A DNA stretch of 64,000 nucleotides from a virus (taxonomy: Duplodnaviria > Heunggongvirae > Uroviricota > Caudoviricetes). Every line of letters begins with the position of its first letter. Position 1 is the first letter of the stretch. The notes beneath the pieces were generated by a model. It did no database searches. It was not told where the DNA came from and saw nothing but the letters and a program-made list of their open reading frames with translations. Shown in pieces: positions 31,094 to 62,760 of the stretch. A program made the position numbers and the translations under genes. The stretch lies in IMG/VR virus record IMGVR_UViG_3300044535_000502, one strand, 5' to 3'.

Positions 31094-31094
31094 T

Positions 31095-49067: not shown

Positions 49068-49226
49068 CATGAATACAATAAAGCACGAATGCGAAAATTG
49101 TGACAACGCCTTCAAGATAGTATATGATGGAGACGAGTGCAACGCCGATCCAATTCATTGTCCTTTCTGTGCCGAGTATCTAATTGATACGCCGTCCGAG
49201 GAGTCCGATGACAGCATGGACGATTG
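49068..49226 (+). CDS. small zinc-ribbon ORF (52 aa)
   Basis: CENC...CPFC. An AAAGGAAA ribosome-binding site is present. Confidence 0.3.
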
Positions 49227-49615
49227 ATAACGGTAAGCCAGTTACGGATGAAATGCTTGATGGGCACTGGGGTTTCATCTATGTTATAATGAACAAGGTG
49301 ACCGGTCGCCGCTATGTTGGTAAGAAGTTCTTCACCAAAGCTGGCTATAGAACAGTAAAGGGTAAGAGGAAGAAGATCCGCCTTGCTAGTGATTGGCAAG
49401 ATTACTATGGATCCAATAAGACTTTGCTAGAGGATGTGGCTACACTTGGGGTAGATAACTTTGAGCGGTACATCATCCGCCTGTGTAAGACCCGCTCCGA
49501 GTGTACCTATTATGAAACCCACTTTATATTTCAGTATGAGGCACTACTAAGCGACAGATGGTACAATGAGTGGTGTTCATGTAAAGTGATGAAGCGGAAC
49601 TTGATCCAACGGTAG
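49208..49615 (+). CDS. GIY-YIG homing endonuclease-like protein
   Basis: GFIYVIMNKVTGRRYVGKK carries the GIY-(10)-YVG spacing, with conserved R/E/N residues downstream. Confidence 0.55.
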   Translation: MTAWTIDNGKPVTDEMLDGHWGFIYVIMNKVTGRRYVGKKFFTKAGYRTVKGKRKKIRLASDWQDYYGSNKTLLEDVATLGVDNFERYIIRLCKTRSECTYYETHFIFQYEALLSDRWYNEWCSCKVMKRNLIQR

Positions 49616-49659
49616 CCCACTCCCACCGTCCACCCTGCCTTTTGCTTCGATCTGATACA

Positions 49660-49705
49660 ATTATACCACAGGTGGATCTGGTGTCAAGTCAGTGGAAAGT
49701 ATGCA
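49660..49705 (-). promoter_or_regulatory. early promoter cassette copy 1 (TTGACA-16-TATAAT on the minus strand; orphan/antisense)
   Basis: The plus strand reads attata...tgtcaagtcagtggaaagtatgc. No minus-strand gene lies downstream; it points into the GIY-YIG gene. Confidence 0.5.
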
Positions 49706-49832
49706 TAAATGCCTGGATTGGTACTACCATACTATCCACGCAATAACCATCAATAGAATCGGATATCCGAAATCCGGGCTCTTGGAACCCGCATGCCTAT
49801 TGACTTGGAGAAGACCGTTTTAAAATCAATGA

Positions 49833-50270
49833 TTATGAGGCCACTTGAACCTCAACGATAACGAAAGGAACAGGCTTCACATGAACCAGGGCTAACTCAT
49901 CCAGAAGTTTACTCAGTTCCTCGCGATTCTTAGCAATACAATTCGTTACACGATTAACCTGCCTTTTCATGGCACCGGCTCGACCTCTTTGATCATGCAT
50001 GATAGCAGTTAGGAGCTCATTTTTATACCACGCCAATCTATGAGTGTTATATTCAATTTGTCTATCTGTAAAATCAATATCATAATCTAAAGTTAGAGCA
50101 TACATTCGCAAAAGGTTATCGAGAGCCTTTTCTGCGTTTCTATGTAAAATGAATGTGTGATCAATACCATAATGTTGTTGGGCGCAGTGCGCGGCTCGGG
50201 ATATCCGATTTCCACACATCACGGTATCAATGCTATCTCCGGTGTATACAACAGCGTATTTGATTTTCAT
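49833..50270 (-). CDS. hypothetical protein
   Basis: The start was chosen at MKIKYAVVYTGDS. 145 aa. Confidence 0.35.
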   Translation of the reverse strand: MKIKYAVVYTGDSIDTVMCGNRISRAAHCAQQHYGIDHTFILHRNAEKALDNLLRMYALTLDYDIDFTDRQIEYNTHRLAWYKNELLTAIMHDQRGRAGAMKRQVNRVTNCIAKNREELSKLLDELALVHVKPVPFVIVEVQVAS

Positions 50271-50272
50271 AA

Positions 50273-50488
50273 TTACAGAATATAGGTTTTGGCTGATTTG
50301 CTCAACTCGGCATAAACACATTCACGGACTTCCGTATCCAGCGCCTCAGCATAACGTGAGTCATAGGACAATGCAGTCAACATAGCATCAACTGTAGTCC
50401 AGGACAATTTAGCAGCTTTAGCCGCTAAGGTGATGTTACGGACAGCAGCATCTCCGGCTGGAGTAAACATGGCGTAGGTCTTTTTCAT
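50273..50488 (-). CDS. hypothetical protein
   Basis: The start was chosen at MKKTYAMF, just downstream of cassette copy 2. 71 aa. Confidence 0.4.
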   Translation of the reverse strand: MKKTYAMFTPAGDAAVRNITLAAKAAKLSWTTVDAMLTALSYDSRYAEALDTEVRECVYAELSKSAKTYIL

Positions 50489-50504
50489 AATCAATTCTCG
50501 CTTT

Positions 50505-50550
50505 CTTCCATACAATTATACCAGGATTCCGGTAATTGTCAAGTCAGTGG
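50505..50550 (-). promoter_or_regulatory. early promoter cassette copy 2
   Basis: The plus strand reads attataccaggattccggtaattgtcaagtcagtggaaag, which is the reverse complement of TTGACAATTACCGGAATCCTGGTATAAT. Confidence 0.65.
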
Positions 50551-50561
50551 AAAGTTCTCTT

Positions 50562-50948
50562 TTACCACAAGGCGTGGTTATCGCGCCATTCCCGTATGTG
50601 AGCACCGCGGTCCCTCATTGAATCGAAGGTTTCAGCCGGTTCCTTATCCAGACGGTCTACAATATATTTGAATTCAGCATAGGATAATTTGAACCATTCG
50701 CCTCTGATTAGTCTCTTGGAGTAATTCTTATGTAAATACAATTCAACGTCATATGGTTCTGGAATTTGAGGTGAGATATATTCTATGCCCAACTGCAACC
50801 AGTTTCCGGTATTCAAAGTTGACAGGCGTTTGGCTACACCTTTATTGCTTTTGGAAACACCAATTTTGAATGGCCATGTTCCAGTTCCACTAGTCCAACC
50901 TTTGTGGGGTTTGATGGGTCCAATTAAGTATACATGTCCAATGGCCAT
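50562..50948 (-). CDS. T5orf172 (MUG113-like) domain protein
   Basis: GHVYLIGPIKP...FKIGVSKSNKGVAKRLSTLNTGN...GEWF matches the T5orf172 / GIY-YIG-like DNA-binding domain pattern. Confidence 0.5.
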   Translation of the reverse strand: MAIGHVYLIGPIKPHKGWTSGTGTWPFKIGVSKSNKGVAKRLSTLNTGNWLQLGIEYISPQIPEPYDVELYLHKNYSKRLIRGEWFKLSYAEFKYIVDRLDKEPAETFDSMRDRGAHIREWRDNHALW

Positions 50949-50950
50949 AT

Positions 50951-51114
50951 TACTCTCCGATTACAATGGTATCACCCCAAACATGGATGTCCGAGGCGAA
51001 AACTGGGCTTTGATACTCTTGGTTCATGGCCATCTCAACGCTGGCATCCTGGTCTGGCAATGCTTGCAAAATACGGATCAATTCTGCTACAGTCAATTGG
51101 GTTTGCATGGTCAT
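50951..51114 (-). CDS. small leader ORF (54 aa), first gene after cassette copy 3
   Basis: MTMQTQLTVAELIRILQALPDQDASVEM.... Its stop lies 2 nt from the next start. Confidence 0.35.
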
Positions 51115-51135
51115 CTTTCGTCTTAGTATGGTTCT

Positions 51136-51182
51136 ATTATAACAGGATTCCAGTAATTGTCAAGTCAGAAGAAAGTATTACA
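51136..51182 (-). promoter_or_regulatory. early promoter cassette copy 3
   Basis: The plus strand reads attataacaggattccagtaattgtcaagtcagaagaaagta. Confidence 0.6.
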
Positions 51183-51314
51183 TAATGGCTAGGTGGAGAA
51201 TCACCGCCAATGTATTCAGTGCCAAAGCCACGGCATGGAGTATAATGGAGGGTTTGTTCTCAGATACGGACAAAAAGTATGCACTGGTCACAACAAATAG
51301 TAGGTTAATATAAA

Positions 51315-51542
51315 TCATTCTTCAACTCCGAAATGTTCTTTAATGATTTCATCGGCAAATAAATCGTGTATGCCTTTACCAGTGGAACACCGTTTGGTAA
51401 GTTCCATACATTTTTTCACAATCAACTCGGCGAACTTTTCACTATATTGATACACCCACATCCCACTTCGGTCTGAACTTCCGGTATTTTTATCAGCATA
51501 CCTACCAGCCTCAAACATTAGTTCTTCAATTCGTTCGTTCAT
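51315..51542 (-). CDS. member of the MNERIKEL/EKFAELIV/HFGVEE small-protein family (copy A)
   Basis: MNERIEELMFEA...EKFAELIVKKCMEL...KEHFGVEE. The start was set at the internal ATG that overlaps the upstream stop (ATGA). Confidence 0.5.
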   Translation of the reverse strand: MNERIEELMFEAGRYADKNTGSSDRSGMWVYQYSEKFAELIVKKCMELTKRCSTGKGIHDLFADEIIKEHFGVEE

Positions 51543-51787
51543 ACAATCTCCATAATATGCCAAACAAATGACCCCTCGAGACAGGTCCCAATGTAGAACA
51601 TATTCTCGTCCAGTTCCCATCCAGTCCCTACAACCTCAAAGGTTCGAGGTTCTATTTGAGCATCAGTGTCTACCAGTGCCCACATACAGAAATCTTTTCC
51701 CTGCATATTGCAATGGAGTATACGGGCACCAACCGGCATTTCTGTGTCGGAGCGACCGGTTACTGTGTATTTGTAAATTGTTTTCAT
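51539..51787 (-). CDS. hypothetical protein
   Basis: 82 aa. ATGA overlaps at both ends. Confidence 0.4.
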   Translation of the reverse strand: MKTIYKYTVTGRSDTEMPVGARILHCNMQGKDFCMWALVDTDAQIEPRTFEVVGTGWELDENMFYIGTCLEGSFVWHIMEIV

Positions 51788-52017
51788 TCTTGGACTCCAT
51801 AGCGTGTACGAATGTCGTGAGCGTAACCACCGAGTTCGGGCATGATGTATGAATCTTCGTCCAACATCTTAGCACAATCTTCGGCGATCAATTGGGCGAA
51901 CTTTTCTCCCCAGCCACTGACTAATTCAACAGCTTTTTCTCTAGACACTGGCGTAACTGGATCACCGTAGTGACTCTGAAAAGCCTCAATCATAAGTTCT
52001 TTAATTCGTTCGTTCAT
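51784..52017 (-). CDS. member of the MNERIKEL family (copy B)
   Basis: MNERIKELMIEA...EKFAQLIAEDCAKM...RYGVQE. Confidence 0.5.
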   Translation of the reverse strand: MNERIKELMIEAFQSHYGDPVTPVSREKAVELVSGWGEKFAQLIAEDCAKMLDEDSYIMPELGGYAHDIRTRYGVQE

Positions 52018-52163
52018 AATATAATCTTGATAATGTAATCGTGCTTGATGTTGGCTTCCAGAAACATTCTCCGTGCTTCTGCTTTATTAGCAGCATCAAC
52101 CTCAAAGTGTTCTAGCCCAGGTCTTTGGTAGGACTTATAGACCACAAAGTAATGCTTGGTCAT
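52014..52163 (-). CDS. hypothetical protein (49 aa; the track gives a longer alternative, 52014..52232)
   Basis: A start at MTKHYFVVYK avoids overlap with the 52165..52329 ORF. Confidence 0.3.
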   Translation of the reverse strand: MTKHYFVVYKSYQRPGLEHFEVDAANKAEARRMFLEANIKHDYIIKIIL

Positions 52164-52164
52164 G

Positions 52165-52329
52165 TCACTCCGACCAGCTGGAGATATACTCCTCAATGTT
52201 TTCAATCTCCGTACGGAGTGCATCTGGAGCAACCTTCTCCAATAGCTTTAGGATATCCACCAGAGCATCCTCAGGGACCATATCATACTGGTCCACCATA
52301 TCCATGTATTGTTGGGCTAGGGTTTTCAT
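52165..52329 (-). CDS. small ORF (54 aa)
   Basis: MKTLAQQYMDMVDQYDMVPEDALVDILKLLEK.... ATGA overlap with the upstream gene's stop. Confidence 0.3.
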   Translation of the reverse strand: MKTLAQQYMDMVDQYDMVPEDALVDILKLLEKVAPDALRTEIENIEEYISSWSE

Positions 52330-52532
52330 CCGATTACATCAATTACTTCGTTCTTATCCACCAGAAGAAAACTGGTAGGCTCTGAGCGCCAAGGCAACTG
52401 GACAGGTTCGTCCAGCTCTACTGAGTATTGGACACTGCCACCATACTTCACGCGACTGGAGACAACTCGACCAGTGACGGCTGTGCCAAGGTAGCAAGCC
52501 GAGATTTTTTGTCCATCTAATATCCACGACAT
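52326..52532 (-). CDS. hypothetical protein
   Basis: 68 aa. An AAGGAAA ribosome-binding site is present. Confidence 0.4.
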   Translation of the reverse strand: MSWILDGQKISACYLGTAVTGRVVSSRVKYGGSVQYSVELDEPVQLPWRSEPTSFLLVDKNEVIDVIG

Positions 52533-52545
52533 GGTATTTCCTTAT

Positions 52546-52723
52546 TCAAGCCAGAAGTTTAGCGGCGCGTTCGCAGGCAGTGTCCAATGCAGCCTGAGCA
52601 TGGCACCATTCTTCATAGGCGCGGAGAACATGACTCCGATCTTCTTGGTCGCTGTTTTTTGCTTCGTGAAATGCCACCAGCTTTTCGGCGTATTGGAGGG
52701 CGAGTTCTTGGACAGTATATTTC
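52546..52723 (-). CDS. small leader ORF (59 aa), first gene after cassette copy 4
   Basis: MKYTVQELALQYAEKLVAFHEAKNSDQEDRSH.... Confidence 0.4.
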
Positions 52724-52752
52724 ATTGGTATCTTTCGTCTTGGTATGGTTCT

Positions 52753-52800
52753 ATTATACCAGGATTCTGGTAATTGTCAAGTACATCAAAAGTACTCACT
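52753..52800 (-). promoter_or_regulatory. early promoter cassette copy 4
   Basis: The plus strand reads attataccaggattctggtaattgtcaagtacatcaaaagtactcac. Confidence 0.65.
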
Positions 52801-53128
52801 TGGACATATACTCAATCCACTCCAATAGAATGGCCTTTGCATCCACGTACGGTACACCAAACTCCCGTTCAATATAGGGTGTAGCTCCCCACATGTTGGT
52901 GGCACCAGAATCCCTCAGTTGGATTAGGTAGTCGTGGTGCTCTTGTGTGAGGACTTTACCTAGTAGGGTTTTTTCCCTGGGCTCTACTCGTTCCGGAAGA
53001 CCATCCATGCATTCGTCACACCAGTTGGCGCCACTACCCACATAGACACTACCGTCTTCGGTATGGATTTCTGTTACGGTTTGTTCATGGCCGCAATCGG
53101 TGCAGCGGTACAATGCTTTAACGTTCAT
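52796..53128 (-). CDS. zinc-ribbon protein
   Basis: CTDCGHE...CDEC. 110 aa. Confidence 0.4.
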   Translation of the reverse strand: MNVKALYRCTDCGHEQTVTEIHTEDGSVYVGSGANWCDECMDGLPERVEPREKTLLGKVLTQEHHDYLIQLRDSGATNMWGATPYIEREFGVPYVDAKAILLEWIEYMSK

Positions 53129-53337
53129 TCTTCAACTCCGAAATGTTTTGTAATCTTATTGAAGACCTCAAAGTTACCAGTTGCTTGTCCATCAGTAAGT
53201 GCAATCTCGGCACATTCTGCCACAATCAACTGGGCGAACTTTTCTTTATCAAAATCTTCAATCATTACCTGAGTTGTGGCATTCCAGTATTTGCTTCTAG
53301 TAGCCTGTTCAGCAAGTTCTTTTATTCGTTCACTCAC
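53125..53337 (-). CDS. member of the MNERIKEL family (copy C; apparent GTG start)
   Basis: (V/M)SERIKELAEQA...EKFAQLIVAECAEI...KHFGVEE. Confidence 0.45.
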   Translation of the reverse strand: MSERIKELAEQATRSKYWNATTQVMIEDFDKEKFAQLIVAECAEIALTDGQATGNFEVFNKITKHFGVEE

Positions 53338-53477
53338 ATACTTCCCTTCAAATCAATCATTGCGACTAGAGCCATAATCGCTATGAATTCAATGGGCTTT
53401 TCAATCACATTGATACCCAAAAGACCCAGCACTAGGCCAAGGACGGCATACAAAATCAAACTAATCATTAACATCAT
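53334..53477 (-). CDS. small hydrophobic membrane peptide (47 aa)
   Basis: MMLMISLILYAVLGLVLGLLGINVIEKPIEF.... Confidence 0.3.
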   Translation of the reverse strand: MMLMISLILYAVLGLVLGLLGINVIEKPIEFIAIMALVAMIDLKGSM

Positions 53478-53486
53478 TTTCTCCTA

Positions 53487-53723
53487 TTAAGTCTTATAGT
53501 GGTTAGCATAGCGGTTGAACAGACTGGCCAGGTACTCACCTTTTGTGAACCAAAATGCTAAGTCATAGCATTCATCCACCATTTTCAATGCTTTCTTTGG
53601 CAACCAAAAGGTAGCTTTTTCATTATCTGCTACTACAAATTTGATAGCTGCTGGTGACTCTTGGAGCACCTTTACTGTCAGTGCAGCACGGACATTGCGG
53701 CCTGACCAAATTGTTGTGTACAT
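53487..53723 (-). CDS. hypothetical protein, first gene after cassette copy 5
   Basis: 78 aa. Confidence 0.4.
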   Translation of the reverse strand: MYTTIWSGRNVRAALTVKVLQESPAAIKFVVADNEKATFWLPKKALKMVDECYDLAFWFTKGEYLASLFNRYANHYKT

Positions 53724-53752
53724 GTTCTTTCCTTCTCTGGTGTATGGCTCTA

Positions 53753-53798
53753 TTATACCAGGTTTCTGGTAATTGTCAAGTCAGACTAAAGTACTAAT
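53753..53798 (-). promoter_or_regulatory. early promoter cassette copy 5
   Basis: The plus strand reads attataccaggtttctggtaattgtcaagtcagactaaagtac. Confidence 0.65.
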
Positions 53799-54007
53799 TT
53801 CACTAGGTGGTAGATTCCAGGTATGACGGCTAACATCACCCATAAAGATAGGATCAGGAAAATCAAAATGGCCTGTATCAAGGCTAGTATAAAGTCAAAC
53901 ATGGTTCTGGGGTGGGGTGGTGTAGAGGGGTTCGATTTCTTTGTCTTCCTCGGGAGTCGGTGAATATCCATAAAGTTTCCAATCACCAATTCGTTTAGCC
54001 ATACCAT
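53786..54007 (-). CDS. small membrane protein
   Basis: 73 aa. A C-terminal hydrophobic helix LILSLWVMLAVIPGIY. Confidence 0.35.
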   Translation of the reverse strand: MVWLNELVIGNFMDIHRLPRKTKKSNPSTPPHPRTMFDFILALIQAILIFLILSLWVMLAVIPGIYHLVKLVL

Positions 54008-54025
54008 CCGTGCCGTAGTGGAATC

Positions 54026-54406
54026 TCACACGCCACGCCACGCCACAGGCTCCTGCACAGGTGCTGCGGTTTTGAGTCGGTCTATTGCAAGATACGGGTT
54101 GTCACCCCACTTGCAGCCGAGGGCATCATGCAAATCTAAGCAGACCTGAGCCATCGCATAGGCTTGCGCTACGTTAATCGGCTCTTGCTGTGCTGGCTGT
54201 GCTGCGGGTTCCATCACGCATTCAACGCACGAACAATAGCCCGTTCCACAGTTGGGTGGGCGTTTCTGCACAGGTGCTTCAAGGGCTTGCTTGATGGCGG
54301 TGATGGCTTTACTCGCCATTGATGTGCCGTGACCTTGCGATGGTAGATAGTCCATGTTCCACTCCAACGCCTCCAGCGCCAGCTTCAATGCTTCTTTGTC
54401 ATTCAT
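54026..54406 (-). CDS. hypothetical protein
   Basis: 126 aa. A GAAGGAAACC ribosome-binding site is present. Confidence 0.4.
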   Translation of the reverse strand: MNDKEALKLALEALEWNMDYLPSQGHGTSMASKAITAIKQALEAPVQKRPPNCGTGYCSCVECVMEPAAQPAQQEPINVAQAYAMAQVCLDLHDALGCKWGDNPYLAIDRLKTAAPVQEPVAWRGV

Positions 54407-54418
54407 GGTAGGTTTCCT

Positions 54419-54574
54419 TCAATCAATAAAAACGGGTGTATCAGCCAACACGATAGCCACATCATAGGACTTACGTGCCTTGAACACGGCTGCGGCTTTC
54501 AACTGCGCCTCATATGAGGTGGATGCAGTTACGGTGATAACGCGGTTTTTGTAGAATGCTTGGTAAGTTCTCAT
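54419..54574 (-). CDS. small leader ORF (51 aa), first gene after cassette copy 6
   Basis: MRTYQAFYKNRVITVTASTSYEAQLKAAAVFK.... Confidence 0.4.
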   Translation of the reverse strand: MRTYQAFYKNRVITVTASTSYEAQLKAAAVFKARKSYDVAIVLADTPVFID

Positions 54575-54602
54575 TGGTGTCTTTCTATCTGGTATGGTTC
54601 TA

Positions 54603-54650
54603 TTATACCAGGTTTCTGGTAATTGTCAAGTACAGTAAAAGTACTCAATT
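54603..54650 (-). promoter_or_regulatory. early promoter cassette copy 6
   Basis: The plus strand reads attataccaggtttctggtaattgtcaagtacagtaaaagtactcaa. Confidence 0.65.
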
Positions 54651-54851
54651 ATCAAATTCACACAATTGGTGGTGGTACAGGTCCCACTCTTCGCCCACGT
54701 TCATCCAGTCCGCCACTTTCATAGCTTCGTCCTCGGAATCAAACCGTTTCAGGTCTTCACCTGAGCGAATACCTGGGCTAATGGTTGTCCATCGCACCAG
54801 ACGGAAGTCCATAGTCTTGTCATGGAACTCTACAGTGTATACTTTTGTCAT
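54645..54851 (-). CDS. hypothetical protein
   Basis: 68 aa. Confidence 0.4.
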   Translation of the reverse strand: MTKVYTVEFHDKTMDFRLVRWTTISPGIRSGEDLKRFDSEDEAMKVADWMNVGEEWDLYHHQLCEFDN

Positions 54852-55072
54852 ACAAACAGGTCTCCGTACATTTCTTCGTAAGCGGCATCAAAATCCTCAC
54901 GGATCCACTCAATGGTATATCCGTTCAGTGCGTAGTTATCAGCCATGGCTTGCAAGCGGCGCAGGGCCTGTTCAGCAGTCAGACCCATGCTTGCCATGAT
55001 ACTCAGATTGCTCCAGTGAGCAAAGTTATTGCTATCTTTGTGGGCACTGACTTGGACGAATTGTTTGGTCAT
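54848..55072 (-). CDS. hypothetical protein, first gene after cassette copy 7
   Basis: 74 aa. Confidence 0.4.
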   Translation of the reverse strand: MTKQFVQVSAHKDSNNFAHWSNLSIMASMGLTAEQALRRLQAMADNYALNGYTIEWIREDFDAAYEEMYGDLFV

Positions 55073-55097
55073 TTGGAATCTTTCTGTCTATGGCTCT

Positions 55098-55145
55098 ATT
55101 ATACCAGGTTATAGGTAATTGTCAAGTCAGTGAAAAGTACTCAAT
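55098..55145 (-). promoter_or_regulatory. early promoter cassette copy 7
   Basis: The plus strand reads attataccaggttataggtaattgtcaagtcagtgaaaagtactcaa. Confidence 0.65.
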
Positions 55146-55344
55146 TTCCTGCATAGATGGAAACATACTCTTCACCTTCGTCTAGGTCAAATGGACCACA
55201 ATCACCATCTACTTCATCGGTAATGAATGCTGAGGACAATGGACCACAATCACCTGAGGCGCCGTGCCGATAGAAAACTTCCTTATCGCCATGACCCTCG
55301 GTTTGGAGTTTTTGCAATTGTTCAATAAATTTATTCAGTTTCAT
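55141..55344 (-). CDS. hypothetical acidic protein
   Basis: 67 aa. A TAGGATGA ribosome-binding site is present. Confidence 0.4.
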   Translation of the reverse strand: MKLNKFIEQLQKLQTEGHGDKEVFYRHGASGDCGPLSSAFITDEVDGDCGPFDLDEGEEYVSIYAGN

Positions 55345-55350
55345 AATATC

Positions 55351-55400
55351 ATCCTACGAATTCGTCAATGGTACGGATCAAGTCAGTGGAAAGTACTCAG
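55351..55400 (-). pseudogene. degenerate cassette plus a 3' remnant of a paralog of gene 56047..56343 (encodes ...[11 protein letters not shown])
   Basis: A 27-nt identity (CGTACCATTGACGAATTCGTAGGATGA) with the 3' end of 56047..56343. The upstream AAAGTACTCAG box is retained, but the -35/-10 elements are replaced. Confidence 0.4.
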
Positions 55401-55403
55401 TAT

Positions 55404-55787
55404 TTACAAGTTCAACAATTCACGCTCTTCCGCAGTCAACAATTCATTGACCTTACGCAATGCCTCTGCCTTTACTTCGGCCAGGCGCTTACGTTCAGCA
55501 AGTTCCGCTTCATGGCGATCCAGATCATATTCCAACGATTCTAATTGTTCTTGGCTATCGGGAGAATGTGCGTAAGCCAAAGAGAAATAATCATAACGGT
55601 CGTTACGGTTAGTAAGTTGGAACTTGTTGTTGTTACTTACAGTGAGTTCAAAGTATGCTTTTGTAGCACGTGCCAGAGCAAGCATGAGGCGCTGTGGATA
55701 TTCATCCACTTGCTTTGCGAGGTATGTTTCACGCTCTTGGGCGTATCGTGCATTACGTTGTGCTACTGTTTCACGTGCCATTTCCAA
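55404..55787 (-). CDS. coiled-coil protein
   Basis: 127 aa, Glu/Arg/Leu-rich. Confidence 0.4.
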   Translation of the reverse strand: MEMARETVAQRNARYAQERETYLAKQVDEYPQRLMLALARATKAYFELTVSNNNKFQLTNRNDRYDYFSLAYAHSPDSQEQLESLEYDLDRHEAELAERKRLAEVKAEALRKVNELLTAEERELLNL

Positions 55788-55814
55788 CTCCTGTTTCTTT
55801 CTATCTAAGTCTCT

Positions 55815-55862
55815 ATTATACCAGGTTATAGGTAATTGTCAAGTCAGTCGGAAGTACTCTTT
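55815..55862 (-). promoter_or_regulatory. early promoter cassette copy 8
   Basis: The plus strand reads attataccaggttataggtaattgtcaagtcagtcggaagtactc. Confidence 0.65.
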
Positions 55863-56050
55863 TTATTGGGTGTGAATAGTTCCAACGCCTTAGCTGGATA
55901 AATCTGGACTGAACCCACCTCTGTGAAACTTTCCACAGCATAGCCTTCTGGTGTAAGTTTGGTGCTATAAGTTCCCACAATGGTGCCATGCCACTGTGAG
56001 CCAGACACTTTTCTAACGGTGTCACCTAGTTTGAATTTCATTTGGATCAT
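55844..56050 (-). CDS. small protein (DUF2158-like SH3/KOW-like?)
   Basis: [27 protein letters not shown] overlap with the upstream gene. Confidence 0.35.
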
Positions 56051-56343
56051 CCTACGAATTCGTCAATGGTACGAATCAAGTCCTCAGCATATACGTCCAC
56101 CACTATCTTGCGGACTTTCACTGTAGGAACGCCTTTGACCTTACGGACTTGCATAAATGTGATGTTATACAGGTCAGGGCAAGGCTTGTATTGGATATAC
56201 ACCAAACCTTTGAATGGTGTCATACCAGTTGTTTTAAATTGTAAGCCATCACCCATATCAGTGAGGTCTACTGCACCCCAAGCATACATAGCCCATGGGT
56301 CTAGATATCCAATTTGATCAAGAATAGTCCGAGCGATTTTCAT
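56047..56343 (-). CDS. hypothetical protein
   Basis: 98 aa. The C-terminus ...[12 protein letters not shown] is duplicated as a remnant at 55351..55400. Confidence 0.4.
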
Positions 56344-56457
56344 GATAACTCCAATGAAAGGATTAACCTAAGGTCTCAACGGAGCCACTAACAGTGCCAC
56401 CAACCAAGACCAACACAACACAAACAACGACTAAAAATTCAAACATAAAAACTCCAA

Positions 56458-56646
56458 TCAAACAAAGTCAAAAGCAAATTGATCACCAACAGGAGAGACA
56501 ATCACGCCGTAAGCGGGATTTTCCAAAATCGTTTGGATTTTAGCGGCCTCACGTGGAGTGCATGTCACGAAAAGAGTACCGCTGGTGAATTCAGCATCGG
56601 TGGTGACTTTAGCAACAAGGGAGAGGATTTTTGATTCGAAGGCCAT
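56458..56646 (-). CDS. hypothetical protein, first gene after cassette copy 9
   Basis: 62 aa. Confidence 0.4.
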   Translation of the reverse strand: MAFESKILSLVAKVTTDAEFTSGTLFVTCTPREAAKIQTILENPAYGVIVSPVGDQFAFDFV

Positions 56647-56675
56647 GATTTGTCTTTCTTACTGTCTATGGCTCT

Positions 56676-56722
56676 ATTATACCAGGTTTCCGGTAAGTGT
56701 CAACCAATACCTGACTAAACTT
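56676..56722 (-). promoter_or_regulatory. early promoter cassette copy 9 (variant upstream region)
   Basis: The plus strand reads attataccaggtttccggtaagtgtcaacc. Confidence 0.55.
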
Positions 56723-56745
56723 GGTGTAAGACTAAAGTATTACTT

Positions 56746-57351
56746 TTAGTATATCCAAAATCCTAATCGTTCTGCTGAGGGCGATTCGTACCATGAAGAA
56801 CCTGGTGGTTGCTCAATGGATTCGTTTTTCCAAACGGGTATTATAGTGTTGCATGAATGGTTGGTGAAGTCGTCATTGTACCTTGCATGGACTTCAATCG
56901 GATTACCACCAACATACTCTACATTGATCCATTCGTATTTTTCTGATAAGTGCTTTAGCGGAAGTGGTATTGGAATGTGCTTATCTATTTTAGTCCATCT
57001 GCAAAATCTATCAAGCCTATCACTGTTTCTAAACCCTTGTACACAAATGTGTTGTTGACCATAATGATAGTCTACTGAGATATGGTCACCAGTGAAAAAC
57101 TCACACCAAAAATAACCATCTGGAATTGCGTTAACATCATTGGGCGTTAGCCATTGCTTTGCTGCACCACGACTCATCATGCGGAGATTGGTTATAGGGC
57201 GAACAATGTACCAATTAGGGCTATCAACTGGAACACCTGCGGGCGCGGCTTTATATCCAAGTTTCTTGGCTAGGATTAGCTTATCATAAATCCAAAGATC
57301 GTCAGCATCTAATGTATGCCAAACATCTTTGTCATCTATCAGGAAAGTCAA
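56746..57351 (-). CDS. hypothetical protein
   Basis: 201 aa. DKLILAKKLGYKAAPAGV is weakly ATP-grasp-like. Confidence 0.3.
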   Translation of the reverse strand: MTFLIDDKDVWHTLDADDLWIYDKLILAKKLGYKAAPAGVPVDSPNWYIVRPITNLRMMSRGAAKQWLTPNDVNAIPDGYFWCEFFTGDHISVDYHYGQQHICVQGFRNSDRLDRFCRWTKIDKHIPIPLPLKHLSEKYEWINVEYVGGNPIEVHARYNDDFTNHSCNTIIPVWKNESIEQPPGSSWYESPSAERLGFWIY

Positions 57352-57526
57352 TCGGTTTACCTGAGTTGGTATAGTGGCGTTCTTTGATACCTTCTTTTTT
57401 GGCTAGTGCTATGGCTTCGTTTCGGAGCTTTACAAACTCCTCATATGCTTCCTGAGTGCCTATTCTATAACCACCATCACCTGCGTTCATATCTGCGCCA
57501 GCTTTGATATTGTCTTTATCGTTCAT
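57332..57526 (-). CDS. hypothetical protein
   Basis: 64 aa. Confidence 0.3.
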   Translation of the reverse strand: MNDKDNIKAGADMNAGDGGYRIGTQEAYEEFVKLRNEAIALAKKEGIKERHYTNSGKPIDFPDR

Positions 57527-57741
57527 ACCATCATGTCTATAATGTTTTGTTGATTGTGTTTGGTCACGACTGCATTTTTATCATACACTTCAATGGTATC
57601 ATGATAGCTTCTGGTGACTACTGAGCCATTGGGATACGTGGTTTGTTCCCAGACTGTTTTGTTTATAACGCCTTTACCCACGGCTGAGGTGGGTAATACA
57701 CCTGTGAAACTGGTGTTATAAAATGTTATGGGTTGATTCAC
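57523..57741 (-). CDS. hypothetical protein
   Basis: 72 aa. ATGA overlap. Confidence 0.35.
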   Translation of the reverse strand: MNQPITFYNTSFTGVLPTSAVGKGVINKTVWEQTTYPNGSVVTRSYHDTIEVYDKNAVVTKHNQQNIIDMMV

Positions 57742-57959
57742 TCTGGTACCTCGATAAGTTGGAATATCTTATACTCGCGCTTTTCCTTACCTCTGTTATC
57801 TGGGCGTGACTGACAGTATGCTTGGAAGTTCTTGGCTTCTTCCATTGTGCCATAAAAGACTTCGCTACCAGATGCATACAGACCTACGTGACCGCTATCG
57901 CCTTCCCAATAGAAGCCTACGCCATACATAAACTTCTTTGCTTCTTTCTTTTTAGTCAT
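57738..57959 (-). CDS. hypothetical protein
   Basis: 73 aa. ATGA overlap. Confidence 0.35.
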   Translation of the reverse strand: MTKKKEAKKFMYGVGFYWEGDSGHVGLYASGSEVFYGTMEEAKNFQAYCQSRPDNRGKEKREYKIFQLIEVPE

Positions 57960-58273
57960 TCCGGCACTCTTCCAAACAAACAGTATATTTCAAACCACTT
58001 TGTGGGTGCATTCTCTATAAAATAGGGATTCACTCTCCATGACATACCATCAGGACCCCACTGCCAGTGTCTGGTACCAAATCTAATATTGAACCAAAGG
58101 TTGCTCATATTACACACCATCAGTCAAATAGATGAACACCCTGAAACCGGCTACAATTGTTCCAAGTACAATACCCGCTGGCGGAAATACTATAATGGCA
58201 ACAGTCAAAAGTCCGATTAGGAATCCGATTGATAACTGCACAGACAACGGCAATGATTTAAATTTATTCCACA

Positions 58274-58552
58274 TTACTTAACTCCAAAATGATTTACAAT
58301 TTCACGACCAGCTTCACTAGCAGCCATATCCCATGTATGTCCGAACGTTTTTCTAACTTCAACATCAGTATCTGGAAAAGGTGTTGCTCTGGCAATTCTA
58401 GCACATTCCTGAACAATTAGCTCGGCAAACTTTTCTAATGTGATCCACTCGTCTGTACTGTCAGTTTCAACAGTTTTGATTTCATGTGTTTCAGTTAGAT
58501 CATAAAGGTAATAGCCGGCTTCTCTTGCAAGGTCTTTAATTCGTTCGTTCAT
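58274..58552 (-). CDS. member of the MNERIKEL family (copy D)
   Basis: MNERIKDLAREA...EKFAELIVQECARI...NHFGVK. Confidence 0.5.
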   Translation of the reverse strand: MNERIKDLAREAGYYLYDLTETHEIKTVETDSTDEWITLEKFAELIVQECARIARATPFPDTDVEVRKTFGHTWDMAASEAGREIVNHFGVK

Positions 58553-58994
58553 ACGTAGCCTTTCCTAACTTGGCATCTACCATACGGTGTCGCTCAATGT
58601 CTTCTATAAACTTTTCATTAGGTCGGTTGATAACATAAGCCGGTCTACCACCAAAGTACACTGCAAAGCCACCAACCAAGTCGCTTTCAATGATACAAAC
58701 ATATGCACTGGTAATAGCTTGACCACCAATCCCACCGAAGCCTAGTGCTGTGCTACTCCAGGTCTGTGGAAACATATTGTACACAGTCAAGTCATATAAT
58801 GAATGCTTGCGAGACTTCTCAACAAAACAATCGGCTGGTGCTACCGCTGTTTTCATTTCTTCTCGCGTCAGCGTAGCTCGCCACTTATCATGTTTGGCCC
58901 AGTCGCGGTCTTGATACTTGTATTCAGGAAACGCCACATATGCGGCATGAGCCATACAGCCAGCTAGGGTTTCAATAGGGTTAGTTGCGTTCAT
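58536..58994 (-). CDS. hypothetical protein
   Basis: 152 aa. Confidence 0.35.
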   Translation of the reverse strand: MNATNPIETLAGCMAHAAYVAFPEYKYQDRDWAKHDKWRATLTREEMKTAVAPADCFVEKSRKHSLYDLTVYNMFPQTWSSTALGFGGIGGQAITSAYVCIIESDLVGGFAVYFGGRPAYVINRPNEKFIEDIERHRMVDAKLGKATYERTN

Positions 58995-59233
58995 TCTTCA
59001 ATTCCGAAATGTTCTTTTATCTTTTCACTGATAAGATGTGTATATTCACACTCCTCGGTATCGGGAGTGTTCATCTGAGCAACTTCGGCACATTCCTTCA
59101 CAATCAACTCAGCAAACTTTTCATGGTCAAAGAATTCACGGTAATGTGTAATACCTGTATCAGGATTATACACATCAGTCGTCACTGTTGCTTCCAGAAT
59201 AAATTCTTGGATTCGCGTATTAGTCGTGGTCAT
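58991..59233 (-). CDS. member of the MNERIKEL family (copy E; start uncertain)
   Basis: ...IQEFILEA...EKFAELIVKECAEV...KEHFGIEE. Confidence 0.4.
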   Translation of the reverse strand: MTTTNTRIQEFILEATVTTDVYNPDTGITHYREFFDHEKFAELIVKECAEVAQMNTPDTEECEYTHLISEKIKEHFGIEE

Positions 59234-59702
59234 ATTCTTGAACATCAAAACCTTCACGGGTCGCAAACACCTTGCAGTGATCGCCGAACATGTCAAGGAA
59301 CACATCATCCGAAATCTTAGAAAGCAATTTGCGCAATGCTTCACTATTCGCAGAAACGGAATCAGGAATCAATTCTTCATTGTGATCACCATAGTCGGGA
59401 TCATTGATCCAAACAGTTTCATCATCACCTTCATATTCACCATACCGGACACTATCATAGTCCACTGCATTGGAAACAAATGCGTATGATGCATAGCAAT
59501 TGAATGTACATGCATCTCCATCATTGAAGTATGGAGTGTATTGACGCCAGCCGACAACCTTTACCTCAGGATTTGCATCAAAGAATTCTTTGAATGCAAG
59601 TTTGAAAATTTCTTGGCCGCGTTTCTGGTATGTCGCTTTCAGTTCTTCCATTTCGGCGTTCATTTGGTCGAACAATGCTTCGATTTCGTTGATTTGTTTC
59701 AT
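59220..59702 (-). CDS. hypothetical acidic protein
   Basis: 160 aa. Confidence 0.35.
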   Translation of the reverse strand: MKQINEIEALFDQMNAEMEELKATYQKRGQEIFKLAFKEFFDANPEVKVVGWRQYTPYFNDGDACTFNCYASYAFVSNAVDYDSVRYGEYEGDDETVWINDPDYGDHNEELIPDSVSANSEALRKLLSKISDDVFLDMFGDHCKVFATREGFDVQEYDHD

Positions 59703-59704
59703 GA

Positions 59705-60130
59705 TTAAACTCCAAATTTAGTTGATACGTCTTCAATAATAATTTCTTGTGGAACGAACTCGACCACAATAGATTCTGCTACACGGGTGTAGAACCCATC
59801 ACCACCATAACCAGTGTACTCGCCGATAATGTCCATTGCAATATCTAGAGGTTCATAGATGCTATCTGGCCGTGAATGTTTCAGAAAAACTCTAATAACA
59901 GCTTCCTGAAATGCTTCAAGTTCACTATCCCTAGGATTATACATGTTACCGAATACTGTTTTGTCGTTGCTGTTACTACCCACAATCAACTTCAAAAGAT
60001 CAATATGAAAATTAACTTCATCTTCATTCAAACCCTCGACAGTTTTGGTATTGTAATTGTCTGCGTCATTTTCCCAAGAGGTGACGGTAATACGATATCC
60101 AGCTTTAATTATTGACATGTTAGTCCTCAA
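59705..60130 (-). CDS. hypothetical protein
   Basis: 141 aa. Confidence 0.35.
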   Translation of the reverse strand: MRTNMSIIKAGYRITVTSWENDADNYNTKTVEGLNEDEVNFHIDLLKLIVGSNSNDKTVFGNMYNPRDSELEAFQEAVIRVFLKHSRPDSIYEPLDIAMDIIGEYTGYGGDGFYTRVAESIVVEFVPQEIIIEDVSTKFGV

Positions 60131-60476
60131 GTTTGATAAATTTACTACGGTTGGTTTTCATTGTGCCTGACATCCAAGGTTGGAGCGTCATGTTGTTTAG
60201 ATACATTTCCATGGTAGGAATGAAGCCTAGGTCTTGCTGAATGTGGTCTTCGGCAATGTCTCTTGGGCTGTACTCTTTGCCATCTGAATTAATTCTGGTT
60301 CTACCGAACATTTGTTCAACGACAAAACAGCCAAAAGCAGAGTGTAGTACGGCTCGGTGCCGCACATCTGCAACCGATGCTTTAGAGCTGTCAATGAAGT
60401 CGTCAATGTCTGCGTAGTCATCGGCGACTCCTCCATATTTTTTAGCGTGGATTTTTCCATGCAGATAGGCTTTCAT
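60120..60476 (-). CDS. hypothetical protein
   Basis: 118 aa. Confidence 0.35.
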   Translation of the reverse strand: MKAYLHGKIHAKKYGGVADDYADIDDFIDSSKASVADVRHRAVLHSAFGCFVVEQMFGRTRINSDGKEYSPRDIAEDHIQQDLGFIPTMEMYLNNMTLQPWMSGTMKTNRSKFIKLED

Positions 60477-60493
60477 TCACCACTCCGAAATGT

Positions 60494-61291
60494 TTACTTA
60501 CCCATCATCAAAGCATTGAAGTTGGATGGCACAACGATTGTCTGCACCTTGCCGTTCTTGATACCTTCTGAGATATTCAACATAGCTTGTGCTTGCATGA
60601 ATGCAATGGAACTGCCTGAGTTGTTAGCCAATGCAGCCATACGACGGCTTTCGGCCTCAGCAGTTTTCACTTCCACTTCCTTTTGCTTCAATTCGTTTTT
60701 GCTACGAACCAATGCGTTAGCGGATTCTACCACTGTATCACTTGGCAATACGTTACGGATCATGACCTGGGAGATAGTGATACTACCGTCAAGTTTTTCC
60801 TCAGCAAGGTTTCGCTGAATTTCATCCTTGATATAGTTTTCCATATCCGTGCGGTTATCAGCCATGTCCAATGCTTCATACTTTCGTGCGGCTTTGTAGA
60901 TGGCATTCCGTGCGTTTTGCACCACATAGTTATACATCACATATGTGTCACCTTTGAATTCTGCGTGGAACGATTTGTTCTTTGCGGAGTATAGTTCAGC
61001 AACGGTTTGTGGATTGATGTTGTAAACAACCACAGCGTCCAAGTCTTTCATGGTGCTGTTGTCTTTTGCAACGGGTGTCATATTCTCCAGGACTACGTTA
61101 ACGTCCTTGACTGGGAAAGTCAAAATAGTGCCAACGATAGTTTGGTTGAATGATCCAGGCAGCAACTCACCAGACTGCACCTGTTTATCAAAGCCGACAC
61201 GAACACCGACCTCACCAGTTTCAATACGAGTACATGCGGAAGTCAAAGCAACGGCTGCGGCGATAGCGCCAAGTTTCAGGTAACGATTCAT
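60494..61291 (-). CDS. SPFH/band-7 (stomatin/prohibitin-like) domain lipoprotein
   Basis: Signal peptide with the lipobox LTSAC at the MNRYLKLGAIAAAVALTSAC start. SPFH-like core GEVGVRVGF.... A GGAG ribosome-binding site is present. Confidence 0.5.
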   Translation of the reverse strand: MNRYLKLGAIAAAVALTSACTRIETGEVGVRVGFDKQVQSGELLPGSFNQTIVGTILTFPVKDVNVVLENMTPVAKDNSTMKDLDAVVVYNINPQTVAELYSAKNKSFHAEFKGDTYVMYNYVVQNARNAIYKAARKYEALDMADNRTDMENYIKDEIQRNLAEEKLDGSITISQVMIRNVLPSDTVVESANALVRSKNELKQKEVEVKTAEAESRRMAALANNSGSSIAFMQAQAMLNISEGIKNGKVQTIVVPSNFNALMMGK

Positions 61292-61292
61292 A

Positions 61293-61379
61293 TTAAAGAA
61301 CTCCAAAAGAAAAAAGAACAAAACAAACAAGGAAGCCCAGGATGAAATACAAGGGCCTTAGCAAAAGGTCACTGAACAT
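61293..61379 (-). CDS. small hydrophobic peptide (28 aa)
   Basis: MFSDLLLRPLYFILGFLVCFVLFSFGVL. A GGAG ribosome-binding site is present. Confidence 0.25.
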   Translation of the reverse strand: MFSDLLLRPLYFILGFLVCFVLFSFGVL

Positions 61380-61388
61380 GATAACTCC

Positions 61389-61565
61389 TTAAAAGAGGAC
61401 AACAATACCAACAAGAATTGCTACTGCGATAAGAGAACACATTGTAGCATAGCCAACAACTTTTGTCAACTGCCATTTTTGTTTACCAGACAAACTTCGG
61501 AACATGGTAATCAAGAATGCAATGAGGGCGCTTAGGATCGCCCAGGCCAAAATAACTCGGATCAT
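61389..61565 (-). CDS. small membrane protein (58 aa, 2 predicted transmembrane segments)
   Basis: MIRVILAWAILSALIAFLITMF...ATMCSLIAVAILVGIVVLF. Confidence 0.35.
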   Translation of the reverse strand: MIRVILAWAILSALIAFLITMFRSLSGKQKWQLTKVVGYATMCSLIAVAILVGIVVLF

Positions 61566-61647
61566 GGTTTCATCATAAAAAGGAAGTAATAAAAGAAAGG
61601 ACCAAACATCAGAGTGGCGATGATGGCGGCTTGGAAGATTTCAGTAA
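61562..61647 (-). CDS. small hydrophobic peptide (29 aa), first ORF after cassette copy 10
   Basis: MKLITEIFQAAIIATLMFGPFFYYFLFMMKP. ATGA overlap with the next ORF. Confidence 0.25.
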
Positions 61648-61654
61648 TCAGTTT

Positions 61655-61700
61655 CATAGGTTCTATTATACAGATTGGTGGAGACTTGTCAAGTGGTTTT
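61655..61700 (-). promoter_or_regulatory. early promoter cassette copy 10 (variant spacer)
   Basis: The plus strand reads attatacagattggtggagacttgtcaagtggtttt. Confidence 0.55.
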
Positions 61701-61980
61701 ACATTGACCAAAAAGATTCTGACGCAGGATTACAACACCATGGTGTGTCGCGGTCGATTTGGACATCCTCGCCAGTCATGTAACTTTTGACGGTAATTGT
61801 GGTTGGGTGACATTCAAAGCGCCACCCTTTTGTCGCGGGATACAGGTCATACAATTCGTTGCACTCGCGGCGGATCGTGGCTTCATCACGGTTAGGCCAC
61901 ACGGTAGTGGAGAACAGGCGCTCACCAGTCTTGCAACGGCGGTCGGCTTTGTAAATATACATTGTATAATTTTGCTTCAT
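61699..61980 (-). CDS. hypothetical protein
   Basis: 93 aa. Confidence 0.4.
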   Translation of the reverse strand: MKQNYTMYIYKADRRCKTGERLFSTTVWPNRDEATIRRECNELYDLYPATKGWRFECHPTTITVKSYMTGEDVQIDRDTPWCCNPASESFWSM

Positions 61981-61989
61981 AACTACTCC

Positions 61990-62157
61990 TTAGAAAAGTT
62001 TGGCACCTTCAGCCATGAACACACGATAGGCGCGCATGGTATCATAACTGTATGCTGACATACCACGCTCTTGGATATCCAGAAGTGTTTCCAAAAGACC
62101 CAAGCCCAAGTGTTCGGCTTCTTGGTTGATTTGCGCGATTGCCGTGGTGATATCCAT
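61990..62157 (-). CDS. small leader ORF (55 aa), first gene after cassette copy 11
   Basis: MDITTAIAQINQEAEHLGLGLLETLLDIQERG.... Confidence 0.4.
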   Translation of the reverse strand: MDITTAIAQINQEAEHLGLGLLETLLDIQERGMSAYSYDTMRAYRVFMAEGAKLF

Positions 62158-62187
62158 TTTGATTCCTTCGTTTCGTTCTAAGTCTCT

Positions 62188-62237
62188 ATTATACCAGGTT
62201 CTAGGTAATTGTCAAGTACAGTAAAAGTACTCACTTC
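62188..62237 (-). promoter_or_regulatory. early promoter cassette copy 11
   Basis: The plus strand reads attataccaggttctaggtaattgtcaagtacagtaaaagtactcac. Confidence 0.65.
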
Positions 62238-62392
62238 TGAACTTCGTACCACCAGCCATTCAGTCGGAATGTTTCCATGTCCGCTTCGCTGATCCAACCT
62301 TCGCACCAAATATCACCAATTTTGGTGGCTTGCATTGAAGTGCAGCGCAAGGCTTCCAGAGCTTGGAGGCGATAAAAAAGAATTCTTGTCAT
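62231..62392 (-). CDS. small ORF (53 aa)
   Basis: ATGA overlap with the upstream gene. Its stop codon lies within the TGAGTACT box of cassette 11. Confidence 0.35.
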   Translation of the reverse strand: MTRILFYRLQALEALRCTSMQATKIGDIWCEGWISEADMETFRLNGWWYEVQK

Positions 62393-62637
62393 ACTAAGTC
62401 CACCTGTACTTGGATACGCTCGGATTCCATCTTTTCATTGTAGCACGAAAAGGTGGTCGCGAGTCCGGTAATTTTTTCTTTAACCATACGCTCCAGTGCA
62501 AACTGAACCGCGATGCGCTGGTTACGATACATGATATCGTCAGTCCCCGATGCTGTAGTAAAAAATGCTACATTATTGAGGATCACACGGATACGTTGGG
62601 AGTTTTTCAAGCCACGGATCAACTGTTTGGTTCGCAT
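62389..62637 (-). CDS. hypothetical protein, first gene after cassette copy 12
   Basis: 82 aa. Confidence 0.4.
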   Translation of the reverse strand: MRTKQLIRGLKNSQRIRVILNNVAFFTTASGTDDIMYRNQRIAVQFALERMVKEKITGLATTFSCYNEKMESERIQVQVDLV

Positions 62638-62669
62638 TAGGGTCTCGCTTTCTGTCTGTCTAAGGCTCT

Positions 62670-62715
62670 ATTATACCACGCCCATGGTAATTGTCAATAG
62701 GTAAAAGATGTTGGT
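62670..62715 (-). promoter_or_regulatory. early promoter cassette copy 12 (leftmost minus-strand promoter)
   Basis: The plus strand reads attataccacgcccatggtaattgtcaataggtaaaag. Confidence 0.6.
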
Positions 62716-62731
62716 GTTGCAAAAAAACAAC

Positions 62732-62760
62732 TTGACAACCGGTGGAAATGTGCGTAGAAT
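62732..62760 (+). promoter_or_regulatory. plus-strand sigma70-like promoter TTGACA-17-TAGAAT (divergent from cassette 12)
   Basis: cttgacaaccggtggaaatgtgcgtagaat, upstream of 62789..63361. Confidence 0.55.

Follow-up and report, generated by a model that had tools for sequence, protein, structure and literature searches.

The array of probable promoter cassettes

The Caudoviricetes virus record IMGVR_UViG_3300044535_000502 was analysed as a 64,000-nt stretch of one strand (the window). Between 49.6 and 62.7 kb lies a minus-strand region of small genes with an array of repeated intergenic cassettes, each centred on a sigma70-type promoter sequence. The original prediction, made from the letters of this stretch, likened these cassettes to the promoter-early stem-loop (PeSL) elements of T4-type phages. 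They are probably very strong sigma70-type early promoters of a T4-like myovirus, built as standardised intergenic linkers. The window encodes the T4-type proteins gp43, gp45, gp44, gp62, RegA, UvsX, gp41, NrdA and NrdB. Near and distant DNA searches of INPHARED returned no relative of the phage, which was therefore placed by its DNA polymerase, gp43, 50-52% identical to those of cyanophage T4-likes. By these genes the genome is T4-like and belongs to a distant, uncultivated myovirus lineage. Scans for tRNAs and Rfam families across the 64 kb were empty.

The accessory region (49616..62722, minus strand) holds 45 minus-strand open reading frames (ORFs), which with two hydrophobic peptides of 27-28 aa make about 47 small genes. 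Adjoining genes mostly abut or overlap by a few bases. The region is bordered at 62.7 kb by the opposing divergent plus-strand promoter-like site and at 49.6 kb by a SegE-like GIY-YIG gene that runs towards it from the other strand. Pfam matches were obtained for five of the 45 products (SPFH/Band 7, DUF6915, R67-type dihydrofolate reductase (DHFR), DUF7352 and T5orf172/MUG113), and a few further products match PHROGs of unknown function, in keeping with the prediction that the region consists mostly of unannotatable small ORFs.

A consensus scan of the window returns twelve sites, every one of them minus-strand, that score 12/12 (TTGACA, 16-nt spacer, TATAAT); chance would be expected to give none on one strand over 13 kb. 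Their TTGACA boxes, by which the sites are named below, start at 62697, 62215, 61692, 56703, 55842, 55125, 54629, 53779, 52780, 51163, 50542 and 49687, and TG stands ahead of the -10 in eleven. About 12 copies of a perfect promoter with a 16-nt spacer had been predicted for this region, and that number and form were recovered from 49687 to 62697. The 33-mer quoted in the prediction, ACTTGACAATTACCAGAAACCTGGTATAATAGA, has six matches at up to three mismatches, all minus strand, and none in 100 shuffles. Repeat finding places a 47-80-nt element in families with 8-10 members, spread over 50.5-62.7 kb and confined to intergenic positions. A profile built from ten copies (nhmmer --max) recovers those ten at E values of 1e-12 to 1e-19; it also picks up the remnant of an upstream half at 55378-55402 and, only weakly, the 49687 site (E 1.7e-4). 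Over the whole 64 kb it finds no further cassette, and none in the replication module.

The copies can be grouped into ten strong members of the cassette family, two divergent copies (61692 and 49687) and the one upstream-half remnant. The 61692 site is a distant relative that has only ACTTGACAA and TATAATAGA in common with the family. Hardly any position varies within a core of about 33 nt, for which the predicted near-identity of the copies holds; over -27..+36 the mean pairwise identity of the ten strong copies is 67%. In the other 50 kb, sigma70 sites on the plus strand all carry one mismatch, with 17-18-nt spacers and unrelated sequence. Since the plus-strand replication genes use such diverse one-mismatch sites, the cassette forms a distinct class.

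The position of the cassettes relative to genes is equally regular. Every gap of at least 55 nt among the minus-strand genes is a cassette or half cassette, as had been expected of nearly every gap, and two apparent cassette-free gaps each encode one of the 27-28-aa hydrophobic peptides. A 5.5-kb stretch of about 17 genes (56703-62215) is without a family cassette. Within the cassette the order is upstream stop codon, GAGTACTTT box, -35, 16-nt spacer, extended -10 (TGGTATAAT), start region, Shine-Dalgarno sequence (SD) and ATG. The start region after the -10 is conserved and AGAGCCATAGA-like, and is followed by a purine-rich SD and the ATG. The ATG lies 19-27 nt after the predicted start in the ten copies with SD and ATG, which is the length of the predicted 5' untranslated region; the exceptions are the leaderless 61692 and the geneless 49687 sites. 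The cassettes therefore do head runs of small, tightly packed genes, as proposed, and the first genes after different cassettes are unrelated to one another. The upstream stop codon occupies a fixed spot in a TGAGTACTTT box in four copies; in four others it falls at a different place in the upstream box or on its 5' margin. With stop codon and ATG both inside it, the cassette is a complete stop-to-start linker.

These sequence features and their places relative to genes are observed, as are the conservation and mosaicism described below; that the cassettes are active promoters, early and strong, and that the hairpin plays a part is inferred. On this reading host RNA polymerase, still unmodified, would initiate at every linker right after infection, and each short operon so transcribed would span 2-8 small accessory genes, in one instance about 17. 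The similarity of the core would be owed chiefly to vertical inheritance and to selection for promoter strength or recognition. Now and then a cassette would be duplicated alone, or would act, like other kinds of junction, as a site of gene gain, loss or exchange.

Several features weigh against reading the cassettes as very strong early promoters of the PeSL kind. Recognition by a sigma70-type polymerase is assumed from the consensus. The upstream box is only mildly AT-rich (64% vs 57% regional) and is no textbook UP (upstream promoter) element, and the 16-nt spacer is one nucleotide under the usual optimum. The palindrome in the spacer, TACCAG-N4-CTGGTA, has the extended -10 as its 3' arm and would form only a short hairpin (4-6 bp) that is broken in three of ten window copies. 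Among 26 distinct variants from the window and related phages, the two inner pairs fail in nine, and covariation is slight. A U tract was not found after the cassette hairpins, none of which passes an intrinsic terminator scan. Intrinsic terminators in the region are at chance level (16 vs 12.3 +/- 4.4 expected), and the terminator half of the term PeSL is therefore only putative for the window cassettes. A second hairpin, GTAC-N7-GTAC, lies upstream of the -35 in three of the ten window copies.

The conserved parts outside the hexamers could mark a regulatory site, beyond mere optimisation of the promoter. The TTACC...GGTA palindrome or the GAGTACTTT box would then be an operator at which a phage or host protein silences all early operons together, or an RNA hairpin would attenuate read-through coming from the operon upstream; we consider this unlikely. 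TTACC is kept in 22 of the 26 distinct core variants, distant lineages included, and this part of the spacer is not read by sigma70. Over the same variants 80% of the stem cells pair, against 31-46% in slid controls, with a few double changes. The equivalent spacer stem-loop of phage RB49 experimentally terminates transcription (PMC2839356). Promoter function, however, explains half of the palindrome, its 3' arm being the extended -10. The failing inner pairs and missing U tract count against this reading too, as do the folding z-scores (-0.1 to -3.5), by which several copies fold no better than shuffles, and no candidate regulator is identified.

Conservation and mosaicism among relatives

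A core scan of IMG/VR recovered the sister contigs L001/L004, L006, L008, L010 and L011 and a more distant group, L002/L003/L005; protein look-ups added two further sister lineages, L019 and L023. Contigs of other assemblies from different samples (L018, L020-L022) are 99.7-100% identical to the window across the array, which is therefore not an assembly artefact. Copies absent or unalignable in sister genomes would, by its own terms, have spoken against the original prediction; they are present and alignable there, and occupy orthologous positions. Sister genomes are about 90-95% identical in blocks, in a mosaic fashion. About 46% of the array region aligns to L001, and the replication-side flank is nearly colinear in L008. 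This mosaicism agrees with the predicted hyperplastic character of the region.

The same core also occurs in another lineage, beside genes that have diverged to about 68% identity, and this persistence points to purifying selection. The core pattern is missing from the genomes of 185,579 bacterial and archaeal species, one genome for each, which gives no clue to the host; it is rare in Joint Genome Institute (JGI) metagenomes, with 6 stretches. Four distant viral contigs carry TTGACAATTAACCGTAAATGTGGTATAAT (L007 at 5316, L009 at 670, L012 at 1557 and L013 at 3111); in these, tandem AGAATCAG(C/T)GAAGGGCG-like units follow it in place of the SD and ATG.

The cassettes are short, multicopy and exclusively intergenic, as would be a selfish element resembling miniature inverted-repeat transposable elements (MITEs) or repetitive extragenic palindromic (REP) sequences, or an assembly or duplication artefact, that is merely promoter-like. 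Such an origin is highly improbable. Orientation is strictly to one strand and the register to stop and start codons is fixed; terminal inverted repeats and target duplications are not seen; the hexamers are perfect in all copies, with TG in all except one; and the copies are identical in the independent assemblies and orthologously placed in the sisters.

More can be said for the cassettes as mobile recombination modules, which would spread, homogenise and be the chief driver of gene shuffling in the region through exchange of the PeSL mini-circle type, although this too seems doubtful. Unique homology breakpoints (51, from eleven loci and about six lineages) were compared with the positions of cassettes and genes. 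Eleven of them fall within cassettes, more than the 7.6% share of cassettes in the region would lead one to expect (binomial p = 0.001). Yet 40 of the 51 fall within 20 nt of a gene junction of any kind, and cassette junctions are not hit significantly more often than cassette-free ones (8/11 vs 23/37; Fisher p = 0.40). Many clean single-gene indels are present in the cassette-free 5.5-kb operon. That the cassettes organise the plasticity of the region, as had been proposed, thus finds weak support at best, breakpoints being enriched in them against a uniform expectation and not against other gene junctions.

Homogenisation of the copies by recombination, also part of the original prediction, is not borne out by their relationships. 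Cassettes cluster by position and not by genome. Window cassettes with a positional ortholog are closest to that ortholog, except for the most divergent ones, 50542 and 49687. Differences to the ortholog amount to 0-7 per 67 nt in the strong copies and 13 in the divergent 61692, and differences to paralogs to at least 9. With orthologs closer than paralogs there is no sign of rapid homogenisation at this divergence, and no concerted evolution is seen.

Individual cases nevertheless speak for the recombination modules. L001 has two extra promoter-gene modules between its 52780-type cassette and the gene of that cassette. It also has a duplication of a cassette alone (8776-8861), an 87-nt copy of the 56703 type ahead of a different gene, and such a duplication occurs in L006 as well. 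Upstream and downstream cassette subtypes, two each, occur in all four combinations. A window-specific insert of 662 bp (55384-56046) shows 7 nt of microhomology, GACTTGA, at its junction, where the -35 region of a cassette meets the 3' end of the upstream gene, and this junction left behind the half cassette and a 37-nt duplication.

A tract of 442 bp (50514-50955) is 91% identical to L002 and 76% to L003, a close relative of L002, with flanks at 68%, and ends exactly at a -10 box. This suggests recent transfer of the T5orf172/MUG113 gene that it carries. However, the gene is GIY-YIG-like, and mobility driven by the nuclease is an equally good explanation. Several independent contigs also end at cassettes: L018, L020 and L021 stop at 50494, L021 starts at 62679, and a 136.5-kb JGI contig ends near 49716. 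Such ends are consistent with strain-level branching or with repeat-induced breaks.

A related possibility is that the linkers serve as a shared docking sequence for integron-like exchange of promoter-plus-gene modules among co-infecting phages of the clade, with the invariant TTACC...GGTA palindrome as a crossover site that is recognised or structured. If true, it would explain why phages with only about 68% identity in their core genes have an identical 33-nt core, why the 91% tract ends at a -10 box and why assemblies break at cassettes; we nonetheless hold it to be quite improbable. For the PeSL hypothesis the breakpoints carry a caution: in the window phage, gene-level indels are equally common at cassette-free and cassette junctions.

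Individual cassettes and neighbouring genes

Taken in the direction of transcription, all on the minus strand, the first cassette (62635..62722) has its -35 at 62697-62692, its -10 at 62675-62670 and the ATG of an 82-aa gene at 62637. It is without the GAGTACTTT box and stands back to back with the plus-strand promoter-like site at 62732-62760. The second (62155..62233; -35 at 62215, -10 at 62193-62188, ATG at 62157) has its upstream stop, TGA (62233-62231), within a GTGAGTACTTT box. The divergent perfect promoter follows (61655..61701; -35 at 61692, -10 at 61670-61665, ATG at 61657). Its ATG begins 8 nt past the last -10 base, and a leaderless mRNA is therefore predicted for a 31-aa hydrophobic peptide; this promoter is kept in L001, L004 and L006. 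Tiny hydrophobic peptides of 31, 28 and 27 aa are encoded at 61562-61657, 61293-61379 and 56363-56446, on the minus strand.

Beyond the 5.5-kb operon, the 56703 cassette (56644..56748; -10 at 56681-56676, ATG at 56646) has an additional upstream half-box and a 22-nt insert. The 55842 cassette (55779..55865; -10 at 55820-55815, ATG at 55781) lies within the window-specific 662-bp insert. Its upstream gene encodes the R67-type (type II) DHFR homolog of 65 aa (55844-56041, minus strand; PF06442, E 6.5e-21), which reads through the box and ends at a TGA beside the -35; with the insert, this gene is missing from the sister phage L001. The half cassette (55378..55402) retains only the upstream box, GAGTACTTTCCACTGACTTGA, fused at GACTTGA to the duplicated 37-nt 3' end of a 98-aa gene, the direct repeats lying at 55348-55384 and 56046-56082.

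The next four cassettes are the 55125 (55070..55143; stop TGA 55143-55141, -10 at 55103-55098, ATG at 55072), 54629 (54572..54647; stop TGA 54647-54645, -10 at 54607-54602, ATG at 54574), 53779 (53721..53798; -10 at 53757-53752, ATG at 53723) and 52780 copies (52723..52798; stop TGA 52798-52796, -10 at 52758-52753, ATG at 52725). Those at 54629 and 53779 are exact matches of the quoted 33-mer, and homology to L001 and L006 breaks within the 52780 cassette. The 51163 cassette (51106..51180; stop TAA 51180-51178, ATG at 51108) has its -10 at 51141-51136 (TGTTATAAT). Within the 50542 cassette (50486..50564; stop TAA 50564-50562, -10 at 50520-50515, ATG at 50488), homology to L002, L003 and L006 breaks.

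The array ends in a degenerate cassette (49616..49707; -35 at 49687, -10 at 49665-49660) without SD and ATG. From this promoter the strand runs into a G-rich motif, GGACGGTGGGAGTGGGC (49627-49611), and then antisense into the 3' end of the SegE-like gene. The motif has the form GGACGGTG(G/A)GAGTGGGC and is seen in the window (49611-49653, minus strand), L001 (10789-10805), L002 (2147-2163) and L006 (8981-8997). In these three lineages with differing flanks it occurs once per genome, always past the last cassette, where a gene would otherwise stand. The relatives have a stem, TGGACG/CGTCCA, on either side of it, part of which is deleted in the window; the motif itself folds no better than shuffles. 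Possible identities are a small RNA, an antisense start or a hairpin at the convergent junction. Other database matches of the motif proved to be unrelated GC-rich coding DNA. A 0.9-kb non-coding RNA running from 49687 across 48.7-49.6 kb was also considered and rejected, as the alignment shows plus-strand coding sequence there, ending in the SegE-like gene. The extended -10 and start region of the cassette recur unchanged as a 16-mer, CCTGGTATAATAGAGA, in frame (..GTWYNRED..) in two paralogous coding sequences (47769-47784 and 48094-48109, plus strand), which could be due to chance or reflect internal promoters.

Several further genes in and around the array are recorded here. A five-member paralog family (59308-58991, 58552-58274, 53337-53125, 52017-51784 and 51542-51315, all minus strand) has members of 70-105 aa and 35-55% identity, with a ..EKFAELIV.EC.. 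motif and a C-terminal HFGVEE; it has no Pfam or PHROG match, and no member stands directly behind a cassette. Two GIY-YIG-type genes lie at the end of the array, the T5orf172/MUG113 protein (50562-50948, minus strand) and the SegE-like endonuclease (49184-49615, plus strand). For the Pfam scan proteins were concatenated by glycine-serine (GS) linkers, which gave spurious Serglycin matches among array products, and these were discarded as artefact; poly-proline linkers were used in the PHROG scan. PADLOC, which models defence and not anti-defence genes, gave no matches for eight larger array products. A host-takeover or anti-defence role of the array genes, as suggested in the original prediction, is putative.

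The first gene of the divergent operon lies at 62789-63361 (plus strand). Its label in a precomputed table, PF26128 Gad2 (anti-Gabija), was not reproduced by the Pfam scan. In L018 its counterpart is followed downstream by genes for a DNA ligase and an AAA_33 kinase-like protein, and by a weak T7-kinase-like match. The replication-side module encodes an 843-aa protein with a Zeta-toxin/AAA_33 kinase domain (24715-27246, plus strand) and a 583-aa protein with a HicA-toxin domain (31011-32762, plus strand). The T4-type late promoter TATAAATA has 6 sites vs 2.5 expected, numbers too small to interpret.

Comparison with known systems

Integron attC cassettes resemble the array in that small genes which depend on a promoter are delimited by a short repeat and come and go as units. 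Integron cassettes are, however, promoterless and need an integrase and a folded attC, whereas the repeat described here is the promoter itself. No integrase was found in the window region examined, and the breakpoints are not repeat-specific.

The early promoters of T4 are closer in kind. They were described by Hinton as 'uber' UP/-35/TGn/-10 promoters, thought to out-compete host promoters (Hinton 2010, PMC2988021). As in the window cassettes, the -35, TGn and -10 are excellent and positions outside the hexamers are conserved, so that conservation beyond the needs of a promoter, emphasised in the original prediction, is to be expected for the class. The T4 -35 is GTTTAC-like and accompanied by A/T-rich UP elements; that of the window is TTGACA. 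Enhancement of the T4 early promoters through ADP-ribosylation by Alt is known; in the window a homolog of Alt or Mod was neither sought nor found.

PeSL elements as published (Arbiol et al. 2010, PMC2839356; Comeau et al. 2014, PMC4122927) combine an AT-rich stretch that holds the upstream stop codon with boxes of sigma70 consensus, a terminating or attenuating stem-loop that lies mostly between -35 and -10 or overlaps the -10, an SD and a start codon. By the same definition, neighbouring elements recombine to give encapsidated mini-circles. They are about 100 bp long, are clustered in hyperplastic regions, often at indels, and leave '1/2' remnants. The architecture of the window cassettes fits this definition, with the spacer palindrome as a candidate stem-loop, and the PeSL-like reading of the original prediction is retained in its main point. 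In T4/PST and KVP40/nt-1 (PMC4122927) clade-specific versions of the same composite element occur, and degraded '1/2' elements keep the -35 side at indels, like the window half cassette. Their promoters are non-consensus (TTTACW...TAYWAT and TTGYVH...TAWWAT) and their stem-loops lie upstream of the promoter, whereas the window hexamers are perfect in 12/12 and the palindrome is in the spacer.

The layout described already as PeSL in other T4-likes is thus present here in a clean further example, not as a new kind of element; in the lineage of the window phage it has not been described before. The design, known from T4-likes of enterobacteria, Yersinia and Vibrio, would thereby be extended to a distant, uncultivated lineage. 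The profile could be used to mark early-gene regions in metagenomic relatives, and the cassettes form a small collection of candidate promoters of very high strength.

The closest parallel in organisation is with the PeSLs of the coliphages RB49 and phi1 (PMC2839356), which have the same order of parts from stop codon through SD and ATG, lie in a hyperplastic one-strand cluster of small ORFan genes, and have full and half elements where some indels join. Inspection of 100 kb of RB49 DNA showed this layout, as AAAAAGTTG TTGACA GGGGATCnnnGATCCCC TATAAT RCACMCAT... GGAGAATCAA ATG, with an AT-rich upstream region, a palindromic spacer (GGGGATC..GATCCCC) and a conserved start region. Past the sigma70 hexamers there is no sequence homology between the two families; the window profile finds nothing significant in that DNA (best E 0.84). 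The RB49 spacer is 17 nt, against 16 nt with TG in the window, and the upstream region of the window cassettes is the less AT-rich. The RB49 stem, GGGGATC/GATCCCC, is G/C-rich, whereas that of the window, TACCAG/CTGGTA, is AT-containing, 4-6 bp long and overlaps the extended -10. With the same layout and no homology, the window and RB49 families share design and not sequence, which suggests that the design is either convergent or very old.

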